The notes beneath the pieces were generated by a model. The model was not told the DNA's origin. It saw only the letters and a program-made list of their open reading frames with translations, and did no database searches. From the NCBI GenBank assembly GCA_044892525.1, contig CM097885.1:23872001-23936000 (forward strand): a DNA stretch of 64,000 nt, written 5' to 3'. The translations under genes were made by a program, and so were the position numbers. This document shows, piece after piece, positions 1 to 40,804 of the stretch (position 1 is the stretch's first letter; the number at the start of each line of letters is the position of its first letter). Source of the stretch: Schmidtea polychroa (lineage: Eukaryota).

Positions 1-60
1 ACCACTGTGTCAGTCTAGCCCACTGCGCCATCAAGGTTTGGATTTTTTGTCATTTTTTAA
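1..60. repeat. Inner part of the left terminal inverted repeat of A1
   Basis: Inverted match to 11916-11975; direct match to 26630-26690. Confidence 0.85.
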
Positions 61-104
61 ATTTTTATTATAAAAAATGAATAATATAAATCTTAAAAAA
101 TAAA

Positions 105-3100: not shown

Positions 3101-4424
3101 AGATAAACCTCCAACAATGAAACTTCTTTGTGATCAAACAGATCGAAGGTTTTATCTTTGTCACTATAGACTCCTCCAATTTTATCTCTCACGAGGAATG
3201 ATATTAAAAAAAGTTCATAGTGTCATAAGATTTAAACAAGCTCCATTCATGAAAGCTTTTATCGAGGAGAACATTAGGTGTCGAAACATTGTAAAAAGAG
3301 AAGGTAACCTTTTTAAAGATAATAATTATAAAATTTTAAACAATTCAGTATCTGGGAAAACAATGAAGAATGTTGATAAATATACTCATATTGAACTCCT
3401 AACAAATACTACCAAAGATATTAAGCGTTATAATCGCATGCTAGGAAAGCCTACATTTAAAAACGCACAAGTATTTTCTGAAAATCTTACTGCAGTAGAA
3501 TTAAAAAATTATGAGAAAACATATAACAAACCAATATTTATAGGGTTTACAATTTTAGAACTTTCAAAATTACAAATGTATGAAACATATTATAACATCT
3601 TACAACCTATATACGGAGCAAATATATCAATGCATGCAATGGATACAGATTCAATGTTTTTAACAATAAGAACTCATGATTTACGAAAAGATATGAAAGA
3701 AAATCCTATATTTTCAAATTTAATAAATTCATCTGGAGAACTATTTTCGTTTAAAGATGAAAAACCTTTTACTCCTATAGAAAATGGAATATTTATTCGT
3801 GCTAAACAATATTCATACGAAACATTTAGAAACCCTGAATTTATAACTAGATCATTTATATTTAAAACTCCAGAAACAGAAGAAACCATTACACATAGAT
3901 ATCCTATATTTCCTAAAGAAGAAAAACCTGTAAAGGATAACAGATGTAAAGGAATACAGAGAGTGGTGGCAAAGAATCTTTCTCATCAAGATTATATAGA
4001 TACATTGAATCCAAATCATAAAGATAAAATTGATGAAATACATCAACTTAAAAGTGAAAACCATGATATTCACTTGATAGAATCTCAAAAAGTATCATTA
4101 TCAAATTATGATGATAAGAGATTCATACTAAGTGATTTAAAGACAACTCTACCTATTGGAAATAATTTAATCCCTATAATAAAAAATCTAGAAAAGTTGA
4201 ATAAGTTATATGATACAAAGATTACTGATCTTGATATTTATAATGTTGAAATTATTTATCCCGAGAGAGAAATCGAGAAACCTTTATGTTCTCAAGTTTT
4301 TAATCCTATATGTTTAGAACTTAAATATTTTAATACTGATTCTGAATATATAAAAGGTCTAAGTGATAAAGAATTTAAAGATCATAAATTAATGATTCAT
4401 AGGTTGGCTTTCAACCATAACTGA
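105..4424 (+). pseudogene. Protein-primed family B DNA polymerase (pPolB) with two in-frame stops
   Basis: ORFs 105, 2175 and 3117 share one frame. TGA at 1977-1979 reads HKN*NL (conserved Cys position) and TAA at 3021-3023 reads DIK*GTRYFPLAP. Motifs: ExoI YGDFES, ExoII FHNLFGYD, ExoIII YLSLDV, Pol LYIDATALY, KILNNSVSGK, MDTDS. N-terminal C2H2 fingers and an EndoVII/HNH-like CWMC..DHDH insert are present. Confidence 0.93.
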
Positions 4425-4510
4425 AACCAACGATATTTAATAATAAAATGTCGACAATTAATTTAAGCAACTATAGCAACTTGATCTACTTTTTTAAAAA
4501 TTCATCCATT

Positions 4511-5104
4511 TTATAAGTAAGAATTCTTTAACCACTTGTCTCGTTTAATTTTTTTAGAATATTCATTAGTTATAATATTTGCACTTTTTAATTTTATAAC
4601 TTCATTTTTAATATCTTGAATTATTTGATTTGATTTCATTATTTCATCATCAGTTAAGATTCCATCTTCTAAAGCTTTTAATTGAAATAAAAATAATTTA
4701 GAGATTCCTAATTCTATTGATAAACAAACTTCTCTATATAAACTTTTCTTTTTAGAAGTATAAGATAATGAAACTATTTCAGTTAAGAAACCATCAGCCA
4801 CAGAAATACTTCCAAGTATTACAGGTGCAAGAGTAACAACTGGTAAAGTTATGGGTAAAATAACTGTTAATATTGCAGATGCAAATCCTAAAGAATAACC
4901 TATAACTTTTAAAACTGTATTCCCTTTATTCCATCTATTTTTAATTTTTTTATAATGCTTTAATAAATCTTGTAAATGTAAGGTTTCTGATTTAAATTCT
5001 TTTACTCTCATAATTTCAAGTTCTGTGGGAGCCGAGACCTTGGAAGAATAATATCCTGATGATCTCAATTCTGGGTAAATTTTTTCTTCTCTTACTTCTT
5101 CCAT
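4511..5104 (-). CDS. Polinton accessory membrane protein (hydrophobic hairpin)
   Basis: 197-aa ORF with a long hydrophobic segment VIGYSLGFASAILTVILPITLPVVTLAPVILGSISV, an N-terminal IYPEL..SAP and a C-terminal KALEDGILTDDE. Confidence 0.65.
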   Translation of the reverse strand: MEEVREEKIYPELRSSGYYSSKVSAPTELEIMRVKEFKSETLHLQDLLKHYKKIKNRWNKGNTVLKVIGYSLGFASAILTVILPITLPVVTLAPVILGSISVADGFLTEIVSLSYTSKKKSLYREVCLSIELGISKLFLFQLKALEDGILTDDEIMKSNQIIQDIKNEVIKLKSANIITNEYSKKIKRDKWLKNSYL

Positions 5105-5112
5105 TTTAATAA

Positions 5113-5525
5113 TTAAAAAAATAAGACTTTATTCTTCTGAGCACCATCTGGCACCAATACTCGGATATCAAAAGAAACTCTTGTTGACAGGATATCTTTA
5201 TACAATTCTCTCAATGCTTTACGAACTTCATCAACATCAACCTTTTTTTCATAAAATATTAAATCTATATATTGTACAAGTGAACTAGAAAAATGAATAT
5301 TCTTACTTTTAACTTTATGTAGTCCATGTGAATGAGTATTAACATACCAATCTCCGTGTGGTAAATCATAACTAGTCATTATAACATCACCCTTTTCAAG
5401 CTTACTATTATAATCACATTTCACAAACCATTTCATTCTTTCATTATCATCATCAAACAAAAAGAAATAAGGATCAATAATTTTTACAATCATAAAAACA
5501 CCCCATTCTTTACTGTTTGTTGTTA
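5113..5525 (-). pseudogene. C-terminal remnant of the putative fiber gene (5' part deleted)
   Basis: Near-identical to the 3' part of ORF 33197-34006. A deletion junction at ~5525 removes the equivalent of ~33409-34559. Confidence 0.75.
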
Positions 5526-5777
5526 TGGTTTATGCCCATCACGAGTTTGAATAGTAAATTTATTATTATCTTTAGTTATATTAAAAATAGTATTATAAGC
5601 ACAAAACCATAATAGCCCCAATTCATAATTTAAATTTTGATCTAATTTAATTGAATCTTGAAAGTTTATAGTAAAGTCTGATTCTTTTGAATTTATAGAT
5701 AAAGTTCTTGAATATTTATCTGACATTATGTTTACCATTTTTTTAAAATTATTTTCCGGAGGGTTGTGAAGCTCCAT
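5523..5777 (-). pseudogene. Minor capsid (penton-like) protein, truncated by deletion
   Basis: Matches the first 84 aa of the intact 254-aa ORF at 34047-34811. Confidence 0.8.
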
Positions 5778-5825
5778 TTCTTTAGTAGTAAATTCATATA
5801 GTAAAAATCCTTATAGTAAAAATCC

Positions 5826-6290
5826 TTATAGTAGAGATTCTAGATCATTATAAATTTCTTGAATTATAGATTCAAAATCCTGCGTATGCCCCTTTCCCTC
5901 TCCCTTATTCAATCTATACAAAACATATAAACTTAAAATACCACATATTTTAGTATTCAAAGGTTGAACTTGTAAAGAGTTAAAAGTATAACCATTTGGG
6001 GAATCAATCGGAGAACCCCTCAAGAGATAATCTTCAACTTCTTTAGTAGGTTTAATCCCAAAAGAATCAAAGTAGATAGATTTCTTATATATACAAACCC
6101 AATGAGATCCTTTTTCATTTGAATTTTGATAATTGATTATTATATTCAGGGGACTCTCCAGACTTGATAATTCATCATTCATTAATATTTTAATTTTTAA
6201 ATTTAAATAATTTGCATAATCTTTTAAATCAAAACTTGTTTTTGCATTTATTCCAAATGTTTTTAAAAAATCTAATATTGAAGGAGTCAT
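5826..6290 (-). CDS. Adenain-like maturation cysteine protease
   Basis: Catalytic motifs GSHWVC, YFDSFG and Q.....ICG. Confidence 0.9.
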   Translation of the reverse strand: MTPSILDFLKTFGINAKTSFDLKDYANYLNLKIKILMNDELSSLESPLNIIINYQNSNEKGSHWVCIYKKSIYFDSFGIKPTKEVEDYLLRGSPIDSPNGYTFNSLQVQPLNTKICGILSLYVLYRLNKGEGKGHTQDFESIIQEIYNDLESLL

Positions 6291-6312
6291 TTTGTATTTT
6301 AAAACTTCGTAT

Positions 6313-7230
6313 TTATAACTTCGTATACTTATTAAATTTATCTTTTGAAATTATTCCTTGTTTTAACAAATCTTTAGAAATCTTTAAAATATCAGAATCT
6401 AAATTATTATGTCCTGCTTTCCTTGCAGCTAATAGTTTTCTTAATTCAATAAAAAGATTGATGGGATTTGGTTTACCACCTTCACTAATTAATCCCTCTC
6501 CCTCTGTAACAACATAACCCTTTTCATTTTTATTTAAATAATTCTTTAAATCTTGAATATATTTTGCTTTAGAACTAGCTCTTATTAATCTTATTAAATT
6601 TAAATATTTTTTAATTTCTTCAACATCATCTGAAGAATATCCACAAAGTAATCTATAAAAATCATCTGTAAATTCAAAGTCTAAATATTCATTATTATAA
6701 ACATTTTGTGAATGAATACGTGATTTATTTTCTGAATTTGAATATAAAGTAAAGTTTTGTTTATTAATTGTTATTATTTGATATCCTTCAGTATTAGTAT
6801 TAAATGTGGGTCTAATTGAAGGAGGTAAATCATCTCAAATTTTAGGATCAACTTTAAGAGGTTTTGTTTTTAAAAACATTTCTTCTTCTTCCACATTAGT
6901 AATTCTTCTGCGTTTTCTTTGATTTCTTTCAGGATGGTTTTCACTGGATTCTTTTTCTTTATCCTGCCACTCTAGTTCTTTTATTTTTTGTTTTTTATCT
7001 TCTAACTCTTTAAATTTTGCTTGCTCATTGAAATCTTCTAACTCTTTAAATTTTGCTTGCTCATTGAAATCTTCCAACTCTTTTATAGCTTTAATTGTTG
7101 ACCCCTGTTGTTGTGTTATTACCTCATTTAATATTATAGATTCAGCATGTTGAGTTGTATCTTTTTTATTATATTTATCTTGTTCTGATTGTAATTTTTT
7201 TAAAAGTGCTAATCTTTCTTCATATACCAT
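6313..7230 (-). pseudogene. Polinton core-type protein (~305 codons) with one in-frame TGA
   Basis: Manual translation past TGA 6835-6837 stays open for ~173 more codons, ending ...GEGLISEGGKPNPINLFIELRKLLAARKAGHNN...KYTKL*. The LLA...AG(H)NN C-terminus recurs in Polinton ORFs. Confidence 0.7.
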
Positions 7231-7252
7231 TTTAATGGTATCAAAAATGGTA

Positions 7253-7861
7253 TCATAGTTCGAAGGGCTTCAAGTATAATCCTTTACCATTTTTAGTTTT
7301 ACAAAGGCATCCATTCTTTAAAGATTTACATATTTTTTTTAAATCTTCTTTATCTTTTGAAGATAAAGATTCAGATGTAGAAATTTGATTTTTTAAAAAA
7401 TCATTTAAACCTCTATCTTTATAAGGATCAAGATAGAGACCCTTTCCCTTGGACAGAGTCCCCTGAGACTTTTGCCGACTCCCCTCATATGGATTAAGAT
7501 AGAGACCCTTTCCAACGGACACTCCCCCTTTAGCTTGCCCTACCTTCTTCATTGAATCGATTTCAGTTTGTAGTTTTTCTTTTTCTAGGTCTGTCTTTTG
7601 AGATTTTTTAGCTTTTTGAACTGTAGTTGCAATTCCTCCAGCTATTCCAGCAGCCCCTGATAAACCAGCAATGATTGCAGGTATTAAAGCAGCTAATGGA
7701 AGAATGCCACCTTCTTTAGCTTCGTGGAGCTTCGCTCTAACTTGTTCTTTTACATGTTTTCCAATAAAATATTTTTTACCATCAATTACTACTGATTTAT
7801 TTTTATTTGAATTTATTAATTCTTGCAAAGATTCTTCAGTAGAGGAACTCTTCAAGGTCAT
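7253..7861 (-). CDS. Adenovirus pX(mu)-like core/membrane-active precursor
   Basis: GGILPLAALIPAIIAGLSGAAGIAG resembles the adenovirus pX C-terminus (GGILPLLIPLIAAAIGAVPGIA); three GKGLYL.P repeats. Confidence 0.7.
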   Translation of the reverse strand: MTLKSSSTEESLQELINSNKNKSVVIDGKKYFIGKHVKEQVRAKLHEAKEGGILPLAALIPAIIAGLSGAAGIAGGIATTVQKAKKSQKTDLEKEKLQTEIDSMKKVGQAKGGVSVGKGLYLNPYEGSRQKSQGTLSKGKGLYLDPYKDRGLNDFLKNQISTSESLSSKDKEDLKKICKSLKNGCLCKTKNGKGLYLKPFEL

Positions 7862-7876
7862 TTTATAATAAACAAA

Positions 7877-8683
7877 ATGGATGTACGAAGTCCAATAATT
7901 TGGAAACCAATTTTAAATAGACATAAGAGTAAATTTAATAATAAAGTATTTCCTGATAATTTTAGATTATTAATTGTTGGTTCTTCTGGATGTGGAAAGA
8001 ATGTACTTGTTTTGAGAATGTTACTTGAAGATGATTTTTTAGATTATAATAATTTAATCTTTTATTCTACAACCATAAATCAACCAGAATTACAACTTTT
8101 GAAATGTGGATTTGAAAATAAATTAACTAAAAAAGCAATAATTGATATTTTTAAAAATCAACATAGGTGTCCTGAAGAAGTTTTTCAACCTTGTGATATG
8201 GTTGATTGGTATAAGGAAAAGATTTTAGAATCAGATATTAGTAATAAAAATGATTATATTTGTGAAGAAGGGCAGGAGGCAATTCAAGTTTTATTCTCTA
8301 ATAAACCTGAAGATGTTTTACATTGTGATTTACTTCCTAAAGATAAAAAGAATCTAGTTATATTTGATGATGTTTTTAATATGAAAAATCAAGAGATTCA
8401 AAAGAGTTACTTTACACGAGGTCGACATAATAATTGTAATGTTATTTATATATCTCAAACATATTATGCTTTAGATAAAAATTCAATAAGAAATAATTCC
8501 AATTGTTTTATATTTTTTAAATTAGATCGCCGTGATAAGAATATGATTTATAATGATTTATTTTCAAATGTTGAACCTGATAAGAATATGTTTGATATGT
8601 TTGTTGATAATCATTGGAAAGAAAAATATAATTATATTTATTTGGATAGAGAAGAAGCTGAAATATGGAAAAGTTTGTTTTAG
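7877..8683 (+). CDS. A32/FtsK-like DNA packaging ATPase
   Basis: Walker A GSSGCGKN, Walker B LVIFDD, RGRH.N and ISQ motifs; ATG at 7877. Confidence 0.9.
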   Translation: MDVRSPIIWKPILNRHKSKFNNKVFPDNFRLLIVGSSGCGKNVLVLRMLLEDDFLDYNNLIFYSTTINQPELQLLKCGFENKLTKKAIIDIFKNQHRCPEEVFQPCDMVDWYKEKILESDISNKNDYICEEGQEAIQVLFSNKPEDVLHCDLLPKDKKNLVIFDDVFNMKNQEIQKSYFTRGRHNNCNVIYISQTYYALDKNSIRNNSNCFIFFKLDRRDKNMIYNDLFSNVEPDKNMFDMFVDNHWKEKYNYIYLDREEAEIWKSLF

Positions 8684-8694
8684 GGCTTGTCGAC

Positions 8695-9841
8695 TTAAAA
8701 ATCTGTTTTCTGTAGTTCATTATTATAAAATCTACCTAATATTTTTTCATTATTTAAATCAAAGATGCTATATGATATTGGAGTATATATAATGTATTTT
8801 ATAATGTATAATGTATTTTATTTATAATAAAAATTTCATTTGTCCATTTTGCTGTGAATCCTTTTTCAAATTTATTTTTATATTTAAATATTCTTACTCG
8901 GTCGCCAATTTTAAACTTTGGTTTTTCAATAACATCATTTTCAATATTTACCACTTTAATGGTTTCAGGCTTCATGGAAGCATTTAAAGGTGTTAATTTT
9001 ATAGAACTATGTACATCATTTTTATATTCATTTACAATCTTTTGTAACAATTCATTGTTCCATTTTTGTTTTCCAATAGCAGTAAAATATTTCCACATTT
9101 TATTTTTTAATGTTCTATTTAATCTTTCAACTACGACTGCTTTTCCTTCGTTTTCTGTTGAATATAATTTAATATCATTTTCATTTAAAAACTTTGTAAA
9201 AACTTTGTTATAAAATTCTGTTCCTTTATCACACCATAAATATTTTGGAATTCTTTGATGTTGTTCAAATATATTTTCAAATGCTTCTGTAATAGAATAT
9301 CCTGTTTTATTTTCTAAACACCTTGCAAAGGCAAATCTTGTATATAAATCTATTACTGTTAAAATTATTTTATATTTTTCAGGGTCTGATGATTTGGTTG
9401 GCATAAAGACTAAATCTGCAGACCATGATTGATCTTTTTCATGTACTTGAACTTTTAAATATTTTTTATTTTTTCTAAATTCATGGTGTAATTCGTTGGC
9501 ATATTTTATTTCTGATTCTGTTGGGGTTTGTAAACTAGTCTTGGATATATTCTCGAGGGATCTTTCAGCATCTGCTTGTTCAATAATCTTTTTATTAGCA
9601 ACATCTTTTGCTTTCCTAGGAAGTCTTGCACCCATGGTGATCGGACTGTGTCCTAAGCCTATTTTTCTGTAGTAAAAGGTTTTAATATTGAAGATGTCAT
9701 TTTTGAAGATTGTAGGTCGCCTCCGGCTCGTGGAATCATGTCGCCTCCTATATGTTTTTTAGTTTTTAAATGACTTGCTTTATGATGTCTTGTAACTTGA
9801 CAATTACAACTTTCACATCTCCAATATTTATTTAGAGACAT
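8695..9841 (-). pseudogene. Retroviral-like (rve) integrase with PLA2 domain deleted and 3' end disrupted
   Basis: DDE motifs SADLV, CDKGTEF and VERLNRT. Lacks 286 bp relative to 37728-39101 and is altered near 8780-8815. Confidence 0.85.
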
Positions 9842-9870
9842 TTTAAAATGTTAAAATATCAGGGATTATA

Positions 9871-11157
9871 TCAAGAATCTCCCCTAACATTTTCGATTAT
9901 TGAAATCTTTCCACCATATAATTTCATTTCTATTTTCTTTTCTTCTAATATTAATGTATATACTTTAGCTTTAAAATTAGAATCCTTTGTTACATGAAGT
10001 GTAACATCAACATTATTTATGGCTAGGCGATCATCTTGGTCTGAAACATTTATACAAAATATAGAATATAAATTTTTGAAATCTTCTAAACTTAATTGCG
10101 GTTCAACTTTGAAATCATAACATGTTTCAATATAATTTAGATATGGGAATATGTTTTCATTATTTTCAATATTAAATTCCATTCTATTTATTGGATAATA
10201 AGAACTATTTAATTGAATTTGGATTGTTTTTAAATTATCAACTCCAATCTTTTGAATAAACAAGTTGTTATTTTTTTGGAAAGATGAATCTACTTCTTTG
10301 AATCCAATCAAGATATATCTTGGTCGGTATGCTAAATTTGCTACCTTTATAGAATATGTTGAACCCTCTGTCATACTAAATTCACTACAGATTCTATTTA
10401 AATAATTTACATTTATAGACTTGTTGGAATTTAATCTTTCAAGGAGTTTAATCTCAGAATGTGGGTTTAATGTCCATTCAGGTATATGTAATTCAAGTGT
10501 TGATAATTTTAATTTAGCTTTTGTATCTACAGCTACATAGAACAATCTTTTATCACCTTCTACTCTATTACAGATGAATTCTATAAAAACATTATGAAGT
10601 ATACGATTATAGTTTTGAAGGAATCCAAACAAGTGTTTTAATTCAAAATAACCGTCAAATTTTTTAGATTTATAAAGTTCAGCTCTTTTATGGTAACCAT
10701 GGTTTACATCTAAACCATCTTTATCTAAATCCCCTTTATTAACATCAGGAATCCAACCTGTTAATTCACCATATTCGTTTTTATAATCACAACCAGTCAA
10801 AATAAAATTTAACATTGTAGAATATACTCCCGAATGCAAAACAGTTTCAATTTCTGATGATCCTAGTTTTAATCTCATGTTGGAGAATAAATTTGGAAAG
10901 AAATTATTTTCTAGGGTTATATCTTTGTTTGCTTCAATTTCTAATTCGATTTTATAATATAATTTGGCATTACAAATATCTATAGGGTTTGATGTTTGAA
11001 GAGATTGAAAAACTATATCACCCCTACGATTTAAGTTTGCAATAGATCCTGAAGTTGGGGAGATTTTAAGTACATCGTTTTTCTTGATTTCATGAGTAAA
11101 TTCTTTATTATAATCAAGATTTAATTTATTTTTTTCTTGAATTTTTATATTATTCAT
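9871..11157 (-). CDS. Major capsid protein (double jelly-roll, Polinton type)
   Basis: 428-aa beta-rich ORF with LENNFFPNLF, LFGF and RPRYILIGF motifs; size and position typical of a Polinton MCP. Confidence 0.8.
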   Translation of the reverse strand: MNNIKIQEKNKLNLDYNKEFTHEIKKNDVLKISPTSGSIANLNRRGDIVFQSLQTSNPIDICNAKLYYKIELEIEANKDITLENNFFPNLFSNMRLKLGSSEIETVLHSGVYSTMLNFILTGCDYKNEYGELTGWIPDVNKGDLDKDGLDVNHGYHKRAELYKSKKFDGYFELKHLFGFLQNYNRILHNVFIEFICNRVEGDKRLFYVAVDTKAKLKLSTLELHIPEWTLNPHSEIKLLERLNSNKSINVNYLNRICSEFSMTEGSTYSIKVANLAYRPRYILIGFKEVDSSFQKNNNLFIQKIGVDNLKTIQIQLNSSYYPINRMEFNIENNENIFPYLNYIETCYDFKVEPQLSLEDFKNLYSIFCINVSDQDDRLAINNVDVTLHVTKDSNFKAKVYTLILEEKKIEMKLYGGKISIIENVRGDS

Positions 11158-11212
11158 TTTTATATATTAAAATTTACACACACAAAATAGGATTAATTAA
11201 ATATATTATGTA

Positions 11213-11296
11213 AGCCATTATAGCGGAGTGGGAATAGGCTTCAATTTTATCACCGGGAGTACCGGGTTCAATTTTCGATTTTGGTCAATTTTTTTC
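11213..11296 (+). ncRNA. tRNA-like Pol III unit 1
   Basis: A box TAGCGGAGTGG, B box GGTTCAATT and a downstream T-run; the 3' half resembles tRNA-Asp. Confidence 0.5.
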
Positions 11297-11448
11297 GATA
11301 TTTTTTTTTCAACGGAATCTGATTCAGCGTACTGATTTTAGTATATATTTAAATTTTCAGATGGATCTGAGTGGTAGTTGTCGAGAAAATGAATAATTAA
11401 TTATTAATTTCATCAATAAATAGTCACACATTAACAACTTATTTCATA

Positions 11449-11529
11449 TTGAGTATAGCTTAGTGGTAATAGCACTCGACTGCATTGCCAATACCAATGG
11501 GTTCAAATCCCATTTCCGTCATTTTTTTT
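11449..11529 (+). ncRNA. tRNA-like Pol III unit 2 (tRNA-Cys-like, non-canonical)
   Basis: A box TAGCTTAGTGG, GACTGCA anticodon-like segment, perfect T arm ATGGG-TTCAAAT-CCCAT and T8 terminator. Acceptor and anticodon stems pair poorly. Confidence 0.6.
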
Positions 11530-11689
11530 CAAATTTCTTTAACGAAATATTGATCAGCATACTCGATTTAGTACTTGTACAAATTTTTAAGGAGATTGGT
11601 CAACGGCAACTCTTGGAAATTTAAGATCAAAAACGTTTTAACTTAAGCTACCAAAAATTAATATATCCAATAAAAAAATATTTATAAAA

Positions 11690-11986
11690 ATGGATGAGTT
11701 AAAAGAAAGAATGAGAAATGAATTGAATGAAGTTAAACATAAGAGAATGAAAAGAAGAGAAGAAGAACCATTAGAATAGATCAAAGAGTTGATGGTAGAT
11801 AATGAAAAGTATCGACATTTTTATATGAAGGCTGTAGATGTTGCTGATATAAGATTGAAGAAAATGAAACAATTACAGGAAAGAGTTAAAGAACTTGAAT
11901 CGATTATTTATAGTCTAAAAAATGACAAAAATTCCAACCTTGATGGCGCAGTGGGAATAGACTGGCACAGTGGTTCAAATGGATAG
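11690..11986 (+). pseudogene. Small coiled-coil ORF with premature TAG
   Basis: ATG 11690 (MDELKERMRNEL...) is in frame with ORF 11789; in-frame TAG at ~11777. Confidence 0.45.
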
Positions 11987-12888
11987 CGGTTCAAATCACA
12001 TCTGAGGTTAGTTTTTTTTCAACATAAAATAATATTAAAAATTTGAAAATAATATTGAAAATAGTGTGGGTATCTTATATTTATATTTTATTTTATTTAT
12101 TTTTATTTTATTTTATTTTATTTATTTTATTTATTATTTTATTTTTTAAACATAAATATGAAAAAAAAATATTGAAACGGGTGATGGTGGCGAACCGGTA
12201 ATTATCGCCACCTGTCTTTCGAACACCCCCGGATCGATCCCGGTAATGTGCACATTTATTTCTCAGTTGTTTTCGGACCTCTTTCGGATTCGCTTTCGAA
12301 TTCATTTGTACTTTCGAGCAGCACGCTTAAAACGCCGTTGAAATCGACTTCGTGAGCGAGAAGCGAATAATAAGGCGTGCTGCTATTATCGGATTGATTC
12401 TGATGTATGAGTCTGGCCAGCTTGTATATTAGAAGAGATTTGATAAACGAAAGAGGTTGAAATAAAAAAAAAATGATCCGGATCAAAAAAACTGTTGAGG
12501 GGACAGTGAAAAAAAAAAAAAATACCACTGTCCTCTTTTACTATTTTCATAAAATTTTTTATTCTTCAAGACATCAAGATTAAGATTTCATTTATTTTTT
12601 TTAATTAGCCAATTAGCAACTTGCTAGTTGGCATCCTCAAGTAGCCTTCTAACTTTTTTCATAATACCATTTTCTTTTCTATTCTCTTTATGTTTTTAGT
12701 TTGAAGCTTTTGAGTTTGAGGCTTTAAAGATTAAAACAGTTAGAGTCATTAAGGATGGTTGTTTTCAAAATATAGGGTTAAAATACTATAAAAGTATAAG
12801 TTTTAGGTTGTTTTTCTAATAGCTTAAGTGATTTGGAGGCATGTTTTGTTGGGAGGGCTGTTTTGGTTGGGTATATAACCACACTACT
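11916..12888. repeat. Right terminal inverted repeat of A1 (~970 bp)
   Basis: Reverse complement of 25744-26690 and of 1-60; ends ACTACT. Confidence 0.9.
11936..12019 (+). ncRNA. tRNA-like Pol III unit 3, inside the TIR
   Basis: Two A boxes (TGGCGCAGTGG, TGGCACAGTGG), two B boxes (GGTTCAAAT), terminal stem AACCT/AGGTT, then a T-run. Confidence 0.55.
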
Positions 12889-13285: not shown

Positions 13286-14559
13286 TACTTTGTTTTTGCA
13301 CATTTTTCTTTAATTAATATCTCAATTACTCCACAATGACCTTCCTGATAAATATTCGTTATTTCAAACATCAATGGTTATTTTACATCATAACCCGAAT
13401 AGAATTTCATTAAACTCTGTTACAAAAATATTTTCCTTCCATTTCTGGTATTTTCTGTTATATTCTCTTTGTCATTCAATGTAAAACATTCAGAACTGAA
13501 CTCGAAATCTTTTCTGAATCAAAACATTTATTTGGTTTTTGGATTAGTTTATATATTATATAATTTAGATAAATTTAAACAAATTAATTATTAACTTAAA
13601 TGATATTCAAATTTATAATATTTTCCAAAAAAATATATAAAATTTATAAAGTTTAAAAATAAATTGTAAAAAAAATTTTATTCTTTTGAAATATTTGGTC
13701 GCAAATATCAGAATATGACAAATTTTGTTTTTTTAAAATATATTTTTATACTAAATTCACTTTTTCTTATTTATAATACAACACCAATTATATCTAAATT
13801 ACTAATAAATTATTTTTTAAACGCTTTATTAAACTTAATATTAAATATGTATTTAATAATTTATAGCATAAGCAAAATAAATAATTTTAAATGACTATTA
13901 AAATAAAAATAATAATATTTTACAATTTAAAAATTATTATTTATTTTAAATAATATTTAATTTTATTGATATATATTTTAAATAAATTATCATTTTAAAA
14001 TTCTTTGACTTAAACGAAGAGTGTTCATATTTTTTTACAAAGTTTATTTCAATACAAATTTAATAAATTATTTTAAAATCTTTATATATTTCAAATTTTA
14101 AAAATATTGAAAAATATATTGTTCGATTTTAAAAATTTATATATAATTTTTTTCTGATTTCAGGTGTCTTTAAAAAAATTAACAATTACAACTTTCAACA
14201 TGTTATATGAAAAATTGTATTTTAAAATACGGAAATGTTTAAACATGCTTTACACAAACTTTAATTTAAAGCTTCACAAACTCGTTAAATATTAAATTGT
14301 ATTCTCAAGTTATAAAAATTTATCTAATTCCCCAAAATATTAATTTCAAATTTTCATTACAATAACCTATAAACGGCATTCATTGGCTTTCCTAATTTAT
14401 ATTTTAAAATATTTATATTAAATAAAAAAGAAAATAAGTCAATTAAATACACATGATTAATCATTTAAAATTTCTGTTAATATTAAAATTAATAAAAAGC
14501 GCAATTGACTGGATTTTATTTAATGTCCATTTAGTCATTATCAATTGCGCTTTGGTTTA

Positions 14560-15453
14560 CACCAAACACCACTGAGAACCGTTTCCTATAATATAACAAA
14601 AAAATCAATAATCTTACATTATAGAAACATACATACTTACTTTGATTTCACGTTGATGTTCTAATTTATAGCTCAGTGAGATACATCTTATATTATAGAA
14701 AACTGAAAAGTGGAAGGAAAATTAAAAACTGCACACAAACGCAACACATACTAAAAAGCACATACAAATTTTTGATTCGTATAAATGTAACGATGAGATA
14801 CGTTTCTATAATAAACTTTATTTTTGACAATTTTTAGAAAAAAAAGATCGTTGAAAATTTTTAAAATTATATTTTTAATGAAAATATTAAGAGCAGATGA
14901 ATTTGGTTCAATATCATTTCAATCCAGATTTGATTTCCTGAAAGAAGCTCCTCATATTGAGCTCAGAAAAAAAATTACAAAAATTATTTTAATCATCGAT
15001 TTTCCCCAAAATGTTTTAAAAAAATAAATATTTTAGGTGATTGATTTATTTCTTTCATTAACTATAATTAAAAATATATCGGACTCACATTTTTTTGAAA
15101 TAATTCTAAAATAAATAGAGCTAAATATCATAAAATTCCTAGAAACCCTGAAAATTAATTAAAATAATATATAATTATACTGTTGATTAAAAGTAATATT
15201 TAGGAACTTGAATAATGATCTCATATCTCATATGGATCAGAATTCAAGTCTTAAAATTTACTTTAAATAAAAAAAATTACTTGAAAGCCATTTGTAAAAT
15301 GGCTAAAATAAATTTCCAAAATATATAAATGAGACATGATAAATTGACAAAGATGATTTACAATTACAACCAATTACAATTGGTAAATAAATTGGTGAGT
15401 GAATTTACACGCCAACCACCACTATAGAGAACGTATCTCAGTGGTGTTTGGTG
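14560..15453. mobile_element. MITE-like non-autonomous DNA transposon
   Basis: 17-bp perfect TIR CACCAAACACCACTGAG / CTCAGTGGTGTTTGGTG flanked by TA on both sides; no long ORF. Confidence 0.7.
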
Positions 15454-16230
15454 TATATGTGCTGTATTTGTGTGTTAATTTTATTTTTCTACCACTTTCT
15501 CACCTTCTATATAAAAGATTTTATTCATTAAAACATTAAAATTTAAAGCGCAGGTAAGTTTGTGTGTTTCCATAATACAGTCAGTCTATTGAATTTCTTT
15601 GTATAATATAACTTCTTATATATTGAAAGTAAATAAAAGAAAGAATTTTAAATTTATTATGACAAAGTTTGAATAATTGCAAGCTGTTGAGAAATGAAAT
15701 TTTTTATGAAATAATTTTGTAAGATAATTTTAAATAGAAAGTTTTATGAAATAATTTTCAAAGGCAAAATTTAATACAAATTTTTATTAAATTAATTTCA
15801 AAGATCGATTTCAATTAATTTCTTCTACTAAAAATATTAGTAAACAAGGGTTATATTTGGTAAATAAGTAAATGAAGGGCTAAATTTTAAAAACTAGTAA
15901 TAAACTTTGAAATATGATGAGAATAATTTAATTTTAAGTAAATTAAGAGTCTAAAAATTGATCAAATTAAATTATGGGCTTTTATTTTTAAAAAAAGTAA
16001 TCATTGTTCAAAGATTTTAAAAATTTAAGTAATATTTTTAAATTAAGTAAAATAAATAAAAATTTTAAATTAAAGTAAATTTTTAAATAAGTTAATTAAA
16101 GTAATAATTTTAATTTTATAATCAAAAAGTTTGAATGATAGGCAGCTTTTGAGAAATGAAAATCTTTAATGAAAGTTTTTATGAAATAATTTTTAAAGAA
16201 AATTTAGATGCAAATTTCGCAAGTAATAAT

Positions 16231-16293
<63 letters not shown>

Positions 16294-17429
16294 TCAACCA
16301 AATACTTAACAACTAAAGACTTTATTAACAACACATAAAAAATAACTATAATAATAAATAAAAATTAAAAAGACAGTGATAAAGATACAAAATTTATTCA
16401 TCATCATATATTTGCTTATAAGAAGCTTTTCCTAATTCAGGAAGAAGAATATTTCTTAAATTCTTGTCAAAATCTAAAATTCAACCAGATACCTACAACC
16501 AAAATACTAACAAATATGTACTATCTAGGTATTATTTACATTCAGATAATAAATACCAACTATCAGCTGCTAAGGATTTTTAACTAGGTACTAACAAATA
16601 AGTACCAAATACTTACAACTAAGAACTTACAACCAGATAGCTGCTACCATGTATTAACAACCAACAAACAACTAGCTACTAACAGATTAGTTTCAAAGAT
16701 TATTTACTAACAATCAACAACAACCAACTAACTAGGTACCAGATACCAAATACTAAGTAACTCTCAAACAACCAGATACTAAAGACTTACAACCAGGTAT
16801 TTACAATCAACTAAATATTCTTCATTGTATTTTATCAAATGCTTTTTAAATAAATTAACCTTTTATATGTATTAAATTCAAAAATATATTTAATTACAAT
16901 CAGTAGAAAAACATTTTCTGTCTAAGTCTAAATTTAACAAAAATATTGATTTTCGTCAAAAATGAATAATTATCAACTCAAACACTTTAAAACACCACGT
17001 GAAATTGAAAATAATTCAAATATTTTAAAATAACAACGAAAGACTATAGAATTTTAATTTTTATTCACAAAAGATCTGCTCAACTTTTAATTGATTACTA
17101 ATATTCGTACTGCCTTAAAACATTTATTAATGAAATGTAATAAGATTATATTAATTGAAAATAGTCAATAATTTGCAATTTGTCATTAATCAGTTGTTGA
17201 AATCTAATTTTATGTTAACATGAAGAAAAAATCTTTGCCTATTTCACAAAGTAATTATAGCCTCTTGACATGAGTAAACTTTCTAATTAGGAATTCATTA
17301 ACAAGTCATCTATATAGGGAAGAAGGCTTTCTACATTCATTCAATAACAGACAAATGTGAAATATAAACAGTAATATTAAATATAATAATGAATATTGGA
17401 ACTCCATGTCGATTCCAATGCTGACACTT

Positions 17430-17655
17430 TACCAAAGACAATGACTTATCGATGACTCATCGTTTAAATGTGGGTACTGTTTTATTTTTTTGCACATCCC
17501 CCTTTCTGTATGACTCATCGATGACTTATCCTTTTTAGAACAAAGACAATGCATCATTTATTTTTAGAACAAAGACTCGTCAAACGATTCATCATCTATT
17601 TTTTTAGAACAAAGACTCATAAAACAGGACTCCACTAGAACAAAGATCTTATTAC

Positions 17656-17689
<34 letters not shown>

Positions 17690-17930
17690 ATTATTGTTAT
17701 TATTACTATTATTATTATTATTTTCAAAATATTATTTAAAACAATAAAGTGATAATTTAAACCTTTAGCTGTAAATAATGTATTTAATGAAAAAACATTT
17801 TCGACTATAAGATAGTCTTTGTCAATCTCCTGGAACTTTGCAATCTTCTTCCCAAAAATACATTTCTTTCTTTCTTTTATTTCCTTTTTCTTAATTCTCA
17901 TTGAGAATTAATTCTTATTGAGACCAATTA
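17430..17930. repeat. Dispersed repeat with AGAACAAAGAC/GACTCATC minisatellite and (ATT)n
   Basis: Copies at 25480-25743, 44930-45420 and inverted at 23460-23810. Confidence 0.7.
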
Positions 17931-20699
17931 CTGAGTTATTCTAAAATATATTTAAAATTATCTAGAAATATATTTAAAAATTATCTAACAATATATTTAA
18001 AATTATCTAACAATATAAATTTTTTCAATGAAATTTTTACATGAAAATTATGGTCTAAAATTTTCAATTAAGTAAATTAAGGTCTAAAATTTTCAATTTG
18101 TAAATTAATGGTTAAATTTTAAATTAAAGTAAATTTAAAAAAGTCTATATTTTTAAACTTAAATAAATTAAGGATAAATAAGCAAATTAAGGTCTAATAT
18201 TTTCAATTAAATTAAATTAAGGGTCCAAATTTTTATATTGAATTAATCAAGGATCAAAAATTAAACTAAAGTAAATTAATGATAAATAGGTTAATTATGG
18301 TCGAAAATTTTAAATTAAGTTCTAAATTTTTAAACTTAAGTAAATTAAGGGTTCAAATTAGTAATTTAAGGACCAAATTTTAAAATTAAGTAAATTAAAA
18401 TAAATAGGTGAATTAAGGTTAAGTTTTAAATTAAAGTAATTTAGTTCAAAATTTTAAATTAAAGTAAATTAATGTAAAATTTTAAATTAAATTAATAATT
18501 TATTGTCAGATATTTTGAATAACTATCATCTGATGAGAAATAAAAATTTAAAATGAAAACTTTTATAAAATATTTTTCTATGACAATTTTATATAAGTAT
18601 TTTTATGAATAAATTTTAGATGGAAATAATGTAAATTAAGGGATACATTTTTAAATTAAAGTAATCAATGGTCTATATTTTAAACTTCTATATTTGGTAA
18701 ACAAGGGTTAAATTAAAGTAAATTAATGATAAATAGGTAAATTAAAGTTTAAAATTTTTTTTACTTGAGTATTCAAAGGTCTAGAATTAAATTAAAATTT
18801 TTAAATTATAGTAATACTTTTAAATTAAGTAAATTAAAGTAAAAATTTTAAAATTACAGTAATAATTTATTGTCAGATATTTTGAAAAACTATCAACGAT
18901 GAGAATTGACAATTTCAGATGCAAATCTTTTTGAAATAATTTTCAATGATAAATTTAAATAGATTTTTTATGAAATAATAATAAGAGATATATTTAAAAA
19001 AAGTAATTAAATGCTAAAATTTAAAATTAAGAAAATTAAAGGATGCAATTTTAAATTAAGTAATAAATTTTGAAAGATGATGAGAATTAGTAGTAATAAT
19101 TAAAGAAAATTATGACTAAGTTAATTAGATTTAAAGAACACTACAGGGTTAATTCTAACCATTTTACAATAATATTTTTTATCAAAGTTCATATCTTGAT
19201 TTAGTTAATTTTAATTGAATGTAATGACAAATTCCAGCGTGTTGTCTTCAATTTTAATGAATTATTTTGAAAGATTATTTAGATAAATTTTGGTGTCTAT
19301 TCATTAGTAATTTTTTTAGAGTTGATGGTTTTTGAGAATTTTTATCATTTTCGTGAATTTCATGTGGATTGAATGAATATTTAAAAATTTAAAGTTAGTT
19401 CTAAGATAAATTTAATTAATTTCTTGATAATTGGATGCATTTTTATTGATTGATTTTTAATTTTAAATAAAAATTATTTTTAATTACAGTTAGGTTAATT
19501 ATCAAGTGATAGGATATGACTTTGTAATGTAATTGAATTTGACTAAGTAGTTTTTTGTAAATTTTTTCTAATAATTTCATGTTGATTGATTAAATATTTA
19601 AAGTTTTAATCGTGATTTTAATTAAATTTCTTGATAATTTGCTAAATTTTAAAAAAAAATTAATTTTTTAATGACTGTTAGGTTAATAATCAAGTAATAG
19701 GTTTAATTTTAGATGACTTTGTATTGCACTTGACTCAATAATCTTTTCAATACTTTTCTATGAATATTTTCATTTACACATTGATGAACTTTTAAAAATA
19801 CATAAGCTAAGAAACCAGTTAACTTTATCAAGGACTTCAAATTTACTTGAAAATTATTGTAAGATATACTGAAATTTGTGATTTAGTTTGCTATTATGAT
19901 CAATCAATATATATCATCTCTAGGTAGGTATTTGATGGGTGAAATATTTGTAGGAAATAATGAGTTTATTATGTCTTTGTTATATAAATCGACTTTAGCG
20001 TCAAAATGGATTTTTAAAATAAATTTAAATTTTAAAATACCGCAACGTAATATATATATATATATATACATATTTTTCCTACCTTTCCTTGATTTTGATT
20101 GGTTAGAATTTGTTCCTGTTTATTATCTTCAGTCTATAAACAATAATCTATCATTAGTCACATTTTACAAATATTTAACTTTAAAAATGAATTCTCTAAT
20201 AGAAAACGTTATGAATGTCCGAGAAAAAAATTCAGAAATTTGGTAAATTTTAATTTATTGATTAATTAAATAATTTATTTAGTTACATAATATTAATGAA
20301 GACAATTTGAAATCGAAGATTAAAGGAAATTTGAAAAGAAAAAGTAAACATAATTTTTAATTTATTGATTTAATTAATTGATAATTTAGGTAATACGAAT
20401 AAAGAGAAAAATTATGTCAATTAATCGAAATAAAAATTTACAATGTAAGTATTGATTCCTTTTTATAATTTAAAGGAAATTTAATATAATTTTTTATTTA
20501 AGTAAATGTTAATACTTTTAATTTAGTAAATTTTTATTTTTTAGTAAATAAAATTTTGAAAATATTCATTGTAATAAATAATAATGATTTGCAAATTTTT
20601 GCGTAAACATTTATTAAAATATATCATTTAAATTATAATATTTTTTTATTAAATTTTTATTTTATAGGTATACTTTACTCGAATTGAAATATCTTTTAT

Positions 20700-21170
20700 T
20701 AAATAAAATTTATGGAATTATTTAGTGATTTAAAAACGGATGAGAATCCTGATATGGTGGCAGCGGTAAACACCGACGCGATTAACGAAAGATTATTGCC
20801 AAAAGTGTTCTGTCAAGGTGATGACTTGGAAAAATTCATCAGAAGATCCAAGATCTAATTCGATGCTAAAGGCATCAATAAAAAAGAACAAGAAAGATTC
20901 ACCGCATGCATGATCGACGAGGATCTATTGGAGAAATATGCGAAAACAGTTAAAAAAGCAGAAGGATTTCAAGCCAGGTTACGAATGGCATTTGATTACG
21001 AAAGGGACGTAATAAAGGATATGGAAAGTTTATTGAATTATAAAAGAAGAGGCGAAGAGATTGAAACATATTTTAAAAAAGTGTAGGACCTTGTTGACAG
21101 GTTGTTTGAGAATAAAGAATTCACCAAAGAGAAAATAACAGCAAAGATGTTGATAGTATGTGCTGAGAAT
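20700..21170 (+). mobile_element. Ty3/Gypsy gag remnant (second subfamily)
   Basis: PBS at 20755-20767; gag frame has in-frame stops; duplicated at 48210-48671. Confidence 0.7.
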
Positions 21171-21732: not shown

Positions 21733-22638
21733 ATGAATAATGACAATATGAAAATGGTTCATTGTAAATATCATCCAAATAGAGTTCTAATAACTGATTG
21801 TCGAACTGGAGATATGATATGTTCCGCTTGTGGTCTGGTTGTAGTTGAACGGGCGATTGATCCTTCTAGTGAATGGAGAACATTCGCATCCGATGGAACG
21901 GATGGACATGACGCTTGTCGAGTCGGAGAGGTGGAAACGTCAGAAACAGATGGACAAACATCGACTGCCGTTCAAACAGGTTTTAACCTCAGATTTCTAG
22001 ATGAAAATGGAAATTCGAAATTTAAATTCCTTTCAACTAAGAGTAGCAAAGAAGTGTCATTGGCGTCCCAGAAACGACAAATCGCAGATTTGTGTGAAAG
22101 AATAAAAGTAGATAGAAATGTTTATTCGCGAGCTGTATCTCTACTCCATGAAATTACAAAATCAGAGGCCTGTGTCAAGCGAAACAAAGCGACCTTGAAT
22201 TGCGTATGTCTATATTTGGCTTGCGTAGACAATGAAGTTCCGAGACTGCCGAAAGAAATATTAAACGAATGTCCACTGGTTGATGAAAAGAAATTCAAAA
22301 AGTTATTAAAACTTATCCAAACTGCATTGAAACGACCAACGCGTGAAATCAAGCCAGATTTACTCGTTGGCAGATTTTTATATTATTTAGACGTGACGGA
22401 TTTCAAAATAGAAAAGCTTGTAAAAGAAGCAGTAAAAAATGTAAGTGAAATTAGTGAATTTCGCATTAAAGGAAGCGTTTTGATTGCGGTATGTTGCATT
22501 CAATTGGTCTGTGACTTAAAAAATGTCGACGTAGACGCAAAATTGCTAGCAGATTCAATTGGATTGTCAAAATCGAATATCGCCTCCTTTTCTAAGATTC
22601 TGCACAAAAATGTCAAAATTATTTTACCAAAATATTAA
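21733..22638 (+). CDS. TFIIB: Transcription initiation factor IIB-like protein, intronless and divergent
   Basis: Zn ribbon CKYHP...GDMICSACGLV, B-reader IDPSSEWRTF, RVG linker, cyclin repeat CLYLAC....VPRLPKEI. Confidence 0.9.
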   Translation: MNNDNMKMVHCKYHPNRVLITDCRTGDMICSACGLVVVERAIDPSSEWRTFASDGTDGHDACRVGEVETSETDGQTSTAVQTGFNLRFLDENGNSKFKFLSTKSSKEVSLASQKRQIADLCERIKVDRNVYSRAVSLLHEITKSEACVKRNKATLNCVCLYLACVDNEVPRLPKEILNECPLVDEKKFKKLLKLIQTALKRPTREIKPDLLVGRFLYYLDVTDFKIEKLVKEAVKNVSEISEFRIKGSVLIAVCCIQLVCDLKNVDVDAKLLADSIGLSKSNIASFSKILHKNVKIILPKY

Positions 22639-25743: not shown

Positions 25744-26690
25744 AGTAGTGTGGTTATATACCCAACCAAAACAGCCCCCCAACAATAACATGCCTCCAAA
25801 TCACTTAAGCTATTAGAAAAACAATCTAAAACTTATACTTTTATAGTATTTTAACCCTATATTTTGAAAACAACCACCCTTAATGACTCTTACTGTTTTA
25901 ATCTTTAAAGCCTCAAACTCAAAAGCTTCAAACTAAAAAGAGAATAGAAAAGAAAATGGCATTATGAAAAAGTTAGAGGGCTATTTGATCTTTATCAGAT
26001 TATTGATTTTAAATTATATAAATTAAAAAATAAATGAAAAATAGTAAAACTGCTCTGAGGGGACAGTGGTATTTTTTTTTTTTTTTTTTCACTGTCCCCT
26101 CAACAGTTTTTTTGATCCGGATCATTTTTTTTTTATTTCAACCTCTTTCGTTTATCAAATCTCTTCTAATATACAAGCTGGCCAGAATCATACATCAGAA
26201 TCAATCCGATAATAGCAGCACGCCTTATTATTCGCTTCTCGCTCACGAAGTCGATTTCAACGGCGTTTTAAGCGTGCTGCTCGAAAGTACAAATGAATTC
26301 GAAAGCGAATCCGAAAGAGGTCCGAAAACAACTGAGAAATAAATGTGCACATTACCGGGATCGATCCGGGGGTGTTCGAAAGACAGGTGGCGATAATTAC
26401 CGGTTCGCCACCATCACCCGTTTCAATATTTTTTTTTTCATATTTATGTTTAAAAAATAATTAATTAATAAAAAAATAAAATAAAATAAAATAAATAAAA
26501 TAAAATATACAAGTACTTTATAAATATAAGATACCCACACTATTTTCAATATTATTTTCAAATTTTTAATATTATTTTATGTTGAAAAAAAACTAACCTC
26601 AGATGTGATTTGAACCACTATCCATTTGAACCACTGTGCCAGTCTATTCCCACTGCGCCATCAAGGTTTGAATTTTTGTCATTTTTTTAA
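25744..26690. repeat. Left terminal inverted repeat of A2
   Basis: Reverse complement of 11916-12888; continues into sequence like bases 55-77. Confidence 0.9.
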
Positions 26691-26911
26691 TTTTTAATTT
26701 ATAAAAAAATAAAATAAAATAAAATAAAATAAATAAAATAAAATATACAAGTACTTTATAAATATAAGATACCCACACTATTTTCAATATTATTTTCAAA
26801 TTTTTAATAATAATACTAAGTTTTTGACATGAAATTAGAAACGAAACGATGAGAATCAAATAGAGAAAATAACGAACTTTGTCCAAAATAAATTTATCGA
26901 TATTAGCACAA

Positions 26912-26984
<73 letters not shown>

Positions 26985-32191: not shown

Positions 32192-32295
32192 TAAACATTT
32201 ATTTCTTTACCTTTGTTATTAATACTTTGAATATTGTAAATAATAAAACTATGTATCAAATAATAATATTCAAAATAAACCAAATTTACAAACTA

Positions 32296-40478: not shown

Positions 40479-40804
40479 AACCATTATAGCGGAGTGGGAA
40501 TAGGCTTCAATTTTATCACCGGGAGTACCGGGTTCAATTTTCGATTTTGGTCAATTTTTTTCGATATTTTTTTTTCAACGGAATCTGATTCAGCGTACTG
40601 ATTTTAGTATATATTTAAATTTTCAGATGGATCTGAGTGGTAGTTGTCGAGAAAATGAATAATTATTTATTAATTTCATCAATAAATAGTCACAAATTAA
40701 CAACTTATTTTATATTGAGTATAGCTCTAATAGCTTAGTGGTAATAGCACTCGACTGCATTGCCAATACCAATGGGTTCAAATCCCATTTCGGTCATTTT
40801 TTTT
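40479..40804 (+). ncRNA. A2 copies of tRNA-like units 1 and 2
   Basis: Same A/B boxes and T-runs at ~40480-40561 and ~40716-40804. Confidence 0.5.

Follow-up and report, generated by a model that had tools for sequence, protein, structure and literature searches.

Do the tRNA-like Pol III units at one end of a planarian Polinton supply the element with small RNAs of its own, or do they act as end insulators? Both possibilities were raised by a sequence-only reading of this locus, in which three such units were presented as candidate analogs of the adenovirus VA RNAs. The window, i.e., the whole 64 kb stretch of DNA that was analyzed, corresponds to C1:23,872,001-23,936,000 of the host genome (G000), which is AT-rich and 781-Mb in size. 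Positions 1-12888 of the window hold the larger part of a Polinton whose AGTAGT termini lie 13,768 bp apart and in which domain profiles identify pPolB, A32 ATPase, rve integrase, and double-jelly-roll capsid genes (matches to PF03175, which is weak, the pPolB gene being in pieces, and to PF00665, PF04665, and PF21738). The polymerase is spread over three frames, and the major capsid protein gene occupies 9871..11157 on the minus strand (PF21738, E=7e-25). Both the Polinton/Maverick (adintovirus-like) gene set and AGT-starting TIRs are thus present; a 6-bp target duplication was found in sister copies (C2, C3) and not in the window copy. Genome-wide, 2,304 sites match a capsid 24-mer with at most two mismatches, and the family comprises about 2,300 capsid copies in the host genome.

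The Pol III units, collectively termed the cassette here, sit upstream of the capsid gene and are oriented away from it. Terminal-repeat comparison assigns the window element a right TIR of the long type (11916..12888) that encloses units 3 and 4; of the unit-3 copy in the left TIR, the 5' portion lies at 1..37 on the minus strand, and the remainder, along with unit 4, immediately precedes the window (L031). A second Polinton, located at 25744-40865 and interrupted at its right end (40865), carries units 3 and 4 in its left TIR (26037..26667, minus strand, A boxes at 26660 and 26410) and units 1 and 2 at 40480..40804 on the plus strand (A boxes at 40487 and 40731). The copy at 26590-26670, previously listed among the end copies of unit 3, in fact belongs to this left TIR of the second Polinton. 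Placement of unit 3 in the TIR, and so at both ends, is correct for the window element (left copy at 1-40) and fails in short-TIR subfamilies: among six other elements fetched, four have TIRs of ~325-346 bp that fall wholly outside the cassette, beyond the window-equivalent of 12563, one has the long type, and one has no detectable TIR, such that the cassette is inside the TIR only in long-TIR types.

The layout of a type-2 Pol III gene (A box, B box, tRNA spacing, and T-run) is found in four units, all on the plus strand. Unit 1 (11214..11295, with a start inferred via tRNA numbering) has its A box at 11221, its B box at 11265, and a T7 run from 11289; the equivalent positions are 11456, 11500, and 11522 (T8) for unit 2 (11449..11529) and 11944, 11988, and 12012 (T8) for unit 3 (11937..12019), which is element-specific. 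Unit 4 (12181..12560) comprises a type-2 promoter leader (A box at 12188, B box at 12231) followed by a structured region, with T4 runs at 12270, 12536, and 12544 and the first T6 at 12555. The A-B spacing is 44 in units 1-3 and 43-44 across all four, and the T-runs of units 1-3 start 66-68 bases past the A box. Chance is an inadequate source of this arrangement, as four A/B pairs at tRNA spacing occur within 1.7 kb (11158-12888), whereas 300 dinucleotide shuffles averaged 0.03 such pairs and never exceeded one; over the whole 64 kb, 11 of 16 scan rows are these units or their copies, and the other five are single or low-grade. The three units originally described are therefore present, complete with both boxes and T-run, where they had been placed and on the plus strand, although the count of three, accurate for units 1-3, overlooked the fourth at 12181-12560. 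Nor are the four units one system, as they differ in origin and constraint.

A translational tRNA gene is ruled out by ARAGORN, Rfam score, and stem counts. ARAGORN reports no tRNA gene in the entire window, and the Rfam tRNA model matches unit 2 alone, below threshold (26.5 bits vs. a cut-off of 29). Acceptor pairs number 5/7, 2/7, and 6/7 in units 1, 2, and 3, and T-stem pairs number 4/5, 5/5, and 2/5, respectively; the leader of unit 4, which lacks a tRNA match in ARAGORN and Rfam, has 3/7 acceptor and 4/5 T-stem pairs. Folding relative to shuffled sequences yields z values of 0.08 for unit 1, -1.96 (weak) for unit 2, and 0.30 for unit 3. The earlier characterization of the units as non-translational is upheld by these results, while their stems, which had been called poor, are uneven rather than uniformly so.

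Units 1 and 2 are, according to the alignments, host rDNA-spacer DNA that has recently been shared. Both are held by a ~485 bp segment (11169..11654) that is common to the host rDNA intergenic spacer, with 89-93% identity (indels included) to all four rDNA repeats fetched (C115, C202, C218, and C1). In the spacer, unit 1 and a tandem array of two to three unit-2 copies run antisense to the rRNA genes, and unit 1 of the element is letter-identical to its spacer counterpart; in its 5' half, unit 2 resembles host tRNA-Cys(GCA) through the anticodon (46/73 columns). Other subfamilies lack exactly the segment 11169-11654, with an empty junction visible in one element (L134) and in contigs assembled from sequencing runs. 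As the spacer array extends past the common piece, the simpler assumption is that the element captured it, and units 1 and 2 would thus be recent acquisitions from the rDNA spacer. About half of the elements carry them: unit 1 adjoins 34 of 68 exact capsid matches in C1:0-19.4 Mb (counted by eye) and is present in 30 of 30 loci chosen for closeness to the window capsid, vs. 3 of 24 obtained with distant queries. In the 30 close copies, units 1 and 2 are no less variable than their own spacers, and they show no sign of selection within the element.

Unit 3 is of a different character. When 227 copies were located by their flanks alone, variants common to at least four copies were found at 3 of 18 box sites vs. 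39 of 60 other sites (p=4e-4). The T-stem has 2/5 pairs in 161 of 168 distinct copies, the acceptor has at most 4/7 pairs in 78 of the 168, and no terminal-stem covariation was detected in this set. Since variation spares the boxes and not the stems, unit 3 appears to be kept as a promoter rather than as an RNA, and selection on it, as read from these variants, targets binding and termination signals and not RNA shape. One or two copies occur per end, tandem duplications are encountered, and in an older lineage the same boxes enclose a different middle. Unit 3 may have been acquired in the same manner as units 1 and 2, at an earlier time. The proposal that units 1-3 are VA-like folded decoys is accordingly abandoned, as two of them are rDNA spacer and the third lacks conserved stems.

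The confinement of units 3 and 4 to Polintons, together with their uneven presence among them, bears on what the cassette could do. The unit-3 motif has 2,717 matches in the host genome, the unit-4 A-box motif 3,095, and hairpin A of unit 4 (described below) 3,123, to be set beside the 2,304 capsids. Polinton context was found for all 50 places sampled, namely 30/30 for unit 3 (the first 30 exact matches, all in Polinton ends) and 20/20 for unit 4 (from the first 100 listed, mostly picked for having no exact unit-3 match nearby). Units 3 and 4 are hence not ordinary SINE heads, and a tRNA-derived SINE is rejected for them (0/50 sampled copies outside Polintons); units 1 and 2 do occur outside Polintons, in rDNA repeats. 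Like tRNA-derived SINEs, unit 4 has a tRNA-derived head with A/B boxes, a body, and A-rich tracts; unlike SINEs, units 3 and 4 track the Polinton in copy number, and no poly-A tail insertions of their own were seen. Within 2.5 kb of at least 51 of the 68 exact capsid matches in C1:0-19.4 Mb, the unit-4 motif occurs without mismatch. Among 20 divergent elements retrieved with a distant protease query, 19 have a capsid; unit 3, alone or with unit 4, is found in 10 of them, and the remaining nine are cassette-less, eight of which reach their terminus 250-390 bp beyond the capsid start, and three cassette-less elements form a multi-copy family. An Rfam scan of nine divergent element ends from the host genome returned nothing. 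Many family members therefore carry the units while some lineages lack them, and their absence from 9/19 divergent elements marks the cassette as accessory.

These observations allow a cis-acting role to be weighed, wherein the whole cassette, as a cluster of TFIIIC/Pol III sites, would form a barrier or hold chromatin open for the inward promoters of the capsid and polymerase genes, and its RNAs would be irrelevant. Unit 3 retains its boxes and T-run and nothing else, units have been gained, duplicated, and swapped, units of this kind are also present in the rDNA spacer, and tRNA genes can insulate (PMC11346459). Such a role is probably right for units 1-3. Extended to the whole cassette it is improbable, for it would leave unexplained 300 nt of compensatory RNA structure 3' of the unit-4 promoter as well as a one-strand G.U pattern; moreover, the many elements with the cassette at one end or at neither weaken the idea of a required two-end insulator, and with it the earlier inference of end insulators insofar as this implied a need at both ends.

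Attention thus turns to unit 4, which is likely a Pol III RNA of about 375 nt, as predicted from its boxes, T-runs, and fold. The plus strand folds with z=-5.7, and a comparison of strands gives z=-5.1 for plus vs. -2.3 for minus. Three components of the fold are considered here, all on the plus strand. Helix 3 (12318..12383) has two-sided changes between lineages at 7 of its 10 pairs and is shortened or deleted in some lineages. Hairpin A (12388..12444) is a sequence-conserved, G.U-rich stem of ~25 bp and a candidate small-RNA precursor; it folds only on the plus strand (z=-5.06, vs. +1.19 on minus) because its stem uses many G.U pairs. Hairpin B (12493..12545), a terminal stem with an A-rich loop, lies immediately 5' of the T-runs; most copies have a longer version of it than the window element. 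After exclusion of copies truncated at the edge of a locus, 134 cassettes remain with full context; hairpin A is retained in 131 of these and the helix-3 loop in 121, and in two elements (L152 and L154) hairpins A and B persist without a promoter of their own, directly behind unit 3.

Variation within the main lineage, assessed in 90 distinct sequences out of 108 matches longer than 300 bases, indicates that this fold matters as RNA. With shared variants defined as those in at least three rows, an initial test on the window's own single structure found 12/19 shared vs. 14/42 rare variants to be pairing-preserving (p=0.049). When pairs were pooled from seven copies, with A-tracts omitted and thresholds chosen post hoc, shared variants kept pairing in 12/14 cases vs. 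11/34 for rare ones at pairs of probability >=0.5 (p=1e-3) and in 10/10 vs. 11/35 at pairs of probability >=0.95 (p=1e-4). No such contrast between shared and rare variants is seen on the minus strand of unit 4, and a minus-strand RNA is ruled out by both fold and variant pattern. In hairpin A, the stem of which is short, variable sites number 2/19 in the 5' arm and 4/19 in the 3' arm.

Comparison across lineages extends the result. In 17 rows (five from the main lineage and 12 of the 21 older-lineage copies), 9 of 40 pairs have changed on both sides, seven of them in helix 3; two-sided changes amount to 42 cells vs. 14.0 after shuffling, and pairing stands at 97% vs. 38-49% when slid, with two further analyses in agreement. 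As these changes mostly separate two lineages, they may represent few independent events. In the 21 older-lineage copies, the unit-4 boxes are kept at a spacing of 44 while the leader is 63% identical to that of the window. The commonest B-box variant is at position 60, which is free. Median identity between the older lineage and the window is 42% in the helix-3 stems, which are yet paired, vs. 88% in hairpin A, and the hairpin B arm is 90% identical. Selection on the plus-strand RNA fold of unit 4 can be asserted with high confidence. The view that all units are neutral passengers, i.e., captured host tRNA-like DNA amplified along with a very successful element, is true for the origin of units 1 and 2 and agrees with their being conserved no better than spacers in a young subfamily and with the transposition of cassette-less lineages (L359, L360, and L361); for the cassette as a whole it is very improbable, given the box-biased conservation of unit 3 and the pairing-preserving shared variants and two-sided changes of unit 4.

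Whether this fold belongs to a Pol III transcript depends in part on where transcription could stop. Unit 4 is free of plus-strand T-runs of five or more for 367 bases past its A box, in an element of 25-30% GC. Host genes for tRNA-Cys end at T4 and those for Lys, Arg, and Tyr at T6-T8; a stop at about 90 nt is thus possible in the main lineage, which has a T4 at 12270, although the equivalent T4 is missing from most older-lineage copies. Contigs from three runs guessed to be RNA (X1, X2, and X7; two studies) cover the body of unit 4, and two cover unit 3 heavily. Summed contig depth over 12220-12524 is 5,000-26,000 in X1 and X2 vs. 15-300 at the capsid start, which is no measure of level or strand, while depth is flat within a few fold in two runs of unknown type (X3 and X4), in which capsid and hairpin variants carried by the X1 and X2 contigs are rare. 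As contigs convey no strand, start, end, or level, this coverage is a weak hint. Units 1 and 2 have almost no contig cover in those runs (X10 has none), which is not evidence against their transcription, since short RNAs are lost in such libraries.

The same fold could instead reside in a Pol II transcript or in single-stranded DNA from protein-primed replication or packaging, with the unit-4 boxes as relics. This would suit a GC-rich island near the terminus that is found at both ends in long-TIR elements, and the RNA-guess contigs, being without strand or start, are compatible with it. It is nonetheless quite improbable, and a shade more so than a purely cis-acting cassette: the letters and spacing of the unit-4 boxes have been held while the leader diverged, the plus strand of an element this low in GC stays free of T-runs of five or more over that distance, and the cassette, unlike a replication signal, is missing at short-TIR left ends and in whole lineages. 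There is accordingly good reason, on the sequence features above, to predict that unit 4 yields a Pol III product. The original suggestion that the element makes its own Pol III small RNAs thereby becomes likely for unit 4, by virtue of its fold and boxes, and is set aside for units 1-3.

In the mechanism preferred here, TFIIIC would bind the A and B boxes of unit 4, Pol III would start near 12181, and part of the polymerase would read through the T4 at 12270 and stop at 12536-12560. Shape-only constraint in helix 3 beside letter-level constraint in hairpin A suggests a scaffold carrying a guide: helix 3 would provide the scaffold, with its shape kept and its letters free, and hairpin A the information, with its letters kept, as in the TMERs (tRNA-miRNA-encoded RNAs) of murine gammaherpesvirus 68 (MHV68). 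That the unit-4 RNA is processed into a guide, rather than acting whole, seems marginally the better supposition; the complete proposal, in which unit 4 is a Pol III RNA diced in TMER-like fashion into a small guide from hairpin A, is offered tentatively, at somewhat less than even confidence. Hairpin A, at ~25 bp, is shorter than a canonical Drosha stem. It has no Rfam match, unit-4 likeness to mir-15 and mir-46/281 is at chance level (E 3.5-4.7) and was discarded, and no hairpin-arm match longer than 11 nt that would suggest self-targeting occurs elsewhere in the two window elements. The contribution of units 1-3 would be in cis: besides giving rise to by-products of 75-80 nt, they would gather Pol III factors and hold the capsid-side end open within chromatin silenced by PIWI. 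Because planarian Polintons are PIWI targets, being repressed by PIWI (PMC8532177), a counter-measure would be rewarded.

Alternatively, unit 4 may act whole, as a decoy of the VA-RNA/EBER type that ties up Dicer, Argonaute loading, or a dsRNA sensor, with any small RNAs as by-products. Its multi-branched, covarying fold with long imperfect stems would be apt for this purpose, and about 3,100 templates could supply the abundance that a decoy needs. Adenovirus VA RNAI/II and EBV EBER1/2 likewise have internal type-2 (A/B-box) promoters, U-rich ends, and high structure (PMC4378190), and the carrier of the VA RNAs resembles a Polinton in its linear dsDNA, protein-primed polymerase, and jelly-roll capsid. 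A decoy is still rather unlikely, as helix 3 has been shortened or deleted in lineages that kept spreading, while the letters of hairpin A are conserved, a constraint not needed for a decoy that depends on shape only. Furthermore, at about 375 nt, unit 4 is more than twice the size of a VA RNA (about 160 nt, with terminal stem, central domain, and apical stem) and branches differently, units 1-3 are without a conserved fold, and no sequence or Rfam match links the cassette to VA RNAs (E<=10) or EBERs. An adenovirus VA RNA inhibits PKR or saturates Exportin-5/Dicer; any such activity of unit 4 would be putative.

For a unit 4 that is cut into guides, the nearest known parallel is with the TMERs of MHV68, a DNA virus in which type-2 Pol III units likewise occur as a cluster (PMC4378190 and PMC8223928). 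In a TMER, two hairpins and a U-run come after a tRNA-like leader, and unit 4 shares this order of Pol III leader, hairpins, and U-run. The differences are that the unit-4 leader is not a cloverleaf, which makes release by RNase Z as in TMERs doubtful; that an additional multi-branched domain stands between leader and hairpins; and that the carrier is an integrating invertebrate Polinton in which processing is putative. The Pol III pre-miRNAs of BLV and foamy viruses are comparable in belonging to an integrated element with its own Pol III promoters and hairpins off the main mRNAs (PMC4378190), and, as with those hairpins, unit 4 is found in a terminal repeat (in long-TIR copies only); unlike these viruses, the element is a DNA transposon-virus, and its hairpins are embedded in a longer RNA.

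Closer to the Polintons themselves, Polinton-like viruses, virophages, and MELD viruses also carry tRNA-type genes, according to PMC12220804 and PMC8502044, the latter of which flags tRNA genes in a MELD virus figure. The tRNAs of the protist elements pass Rfam and ARAGORN and are read as translation helpers, (PMC12220804), whereas the units described here fail both. Ten miRNA rows in that work are Rfam matches in protist Polinton-like viruses (e.g., mir-598 in a Paulinella element), with mir-754 not among them. Planarian pseudo-tRNAs are treated in PMC7962491, the available text of which leaves Polintons unmentioned. In a full-text search that covered few subscription journals and no repeat or microRNA database tables, no paper dealing with RNAs that animal Polintons make by Pol III, or that resemble VA RNAs, came up.

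Evidence of another hairpin was obtained from the relatives of the element. One metagenome relative (L159), the capsid of which is 52% identical, contains a mir-754-like hairpin (E=7.8e-7; 48.6 bits, with a cut-off of 84), this being the single match among the 18 of 35 metagenome relatives that were scanned against Rfam. The hairpin and the capsid are on opposite strands; a T7 run follows the hairpin, which folds with z=-8.0, has no A/B boxes, and is unrelated in sequence to unit 4. The mir-754 model gave no match in any control, and neither model nor pattern detects mir-754 in the planarian genome; among viral contigs, the hairpin pattern occurs in 71 places, none of which is similar to the L159 hairpin, and relatives were not found. 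The 35 metagenome relatives, most of which are too short to reach an end, contain no convincing A/B units. The mir-754 family is treated in PMC3854530 and goes unmentioned in PMC3840308, each as far as its accessible text extends. Taken with unit 4, the L159 hairpin suggests that hairpin RNAs recur in this Polinton clade, and its likeness to mir-754 suggests that some "lineage-specific" host microRNAs are element-borne.

In its broadest form, the proposal would hold that animal Polintons encode their own Pol III microRNA or decoy RNAs from repeatedly captured rDNA-spacer promoters, that some planarian-specific microRNAs (mir-754) are Polinton genes, and that the cassette aided the spread to ~2,300 copies against PIWI silencing; in this full extent it is doubtful. 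Its core is directly testable for unit 4 through existing small-RNA and ChIP data, as thousands of templates are available in Polintons that are PIWI targets. Pol III non-coding RNAs are a hallmark of host-defense handling in adenoviruses, gammaherpesviruses, and some retroviruses. If the reading of unit 4 is true, its selected, structured RNA would constitute sequence evidence of virus-like, RNA-level counter-defense or regulation in Polintons and would bear on the origin of the adenovirus VA RNAs.

The rDNA intergenic spacer of the host genome, S. polychroa, carries an array of four to five tRNA-like A/B-box units, which run antisense to the rRNA genes, at the spacer loci examined on contigs C115, C202, C218 and C1:5000-15000 (fetched as L383, L385, L387 and L388). 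This array includes two to three tandem copies of unit 2, one of the tRNA-like units beside the Polinton capsid gene, as well as one further A/B-box unit that is absent from the Polinton. Host tRNA genes lie in long tandem arrays on contigs C1, C4, C140, C333 and C474, and a single tRNA-Cys motif has 1,001 matches in the genome.

The Polinton family itself is very large, with 2,304 genome-wide matches to a capsid 24-mer (up to two mismatches allowed); open capsid frames at 99% identity number at least 98. Its elements have a mosaic make-up: among them are three or more types of polymerase and several types of TIR. The second Polinton of the window (25744-40865) shares the capsid module of the first and has a different left half, made up of a 1,290-aa frame (27399-31271), a gene for a RING-finger protein (31634-32191) and an integrase frame to which a phospholipase-A2-like domain is fused (37728-39101); its right end is broken by a 7.8-kb repeat, another copy of which lies at 13326-21162. 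An intronless TFIIB-like frame of 301 aa (21733-22638) was also noted between the two Polintons.

Given that its polymerase gene (105-4424) is split into three separate frames and that no target duplication was found at its flanks, the first Polinton copy looks decayed or recombinant. Between its units 2 and 3 lies a short coding-like stretch (11690-11986), which some subfamilies have and others have lost by deletion; it contains a 64-aa frame (11792-11986) with no Pfam match.

In a metagenomic Polinton relative (L159; capsid 52% identical, N-part of the polymerase 35%), a mir-754-like hairpin (3807-3886, minus strand) is situated between the protease gene and the next gene. This Rfam match is sub-threshold (48.6 bits, E=7.8e-7, versus a mir-754 family cut-off of 84); the hairpin folds at z=-8.0 relative to shuffled sequences and has a T7 run after it, and a scan for A/B boxes found none there. 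PMC3854530 gives mir-754 as a Schmidtea microRNA family.

Elsewhere in the window, nested long inverted repeats (50859-60987; 1,665 bp at 100% and 1,433 bp at 99%), the arms of which consist of minisatellite sequence, resemble a fold-back element. Lastly, at window 12637-12888 and in seven fetched Polinton loci (L359, L363, L365, L367, L373, L375 and L376), lineages differ in the outermost 250-380 bp of the Polinton end, and in many of them this segment is flanked by its own short inverted repeat, starting with the terminal motif. The Polinton end segment resembles an exchangeable end module that could fold back.
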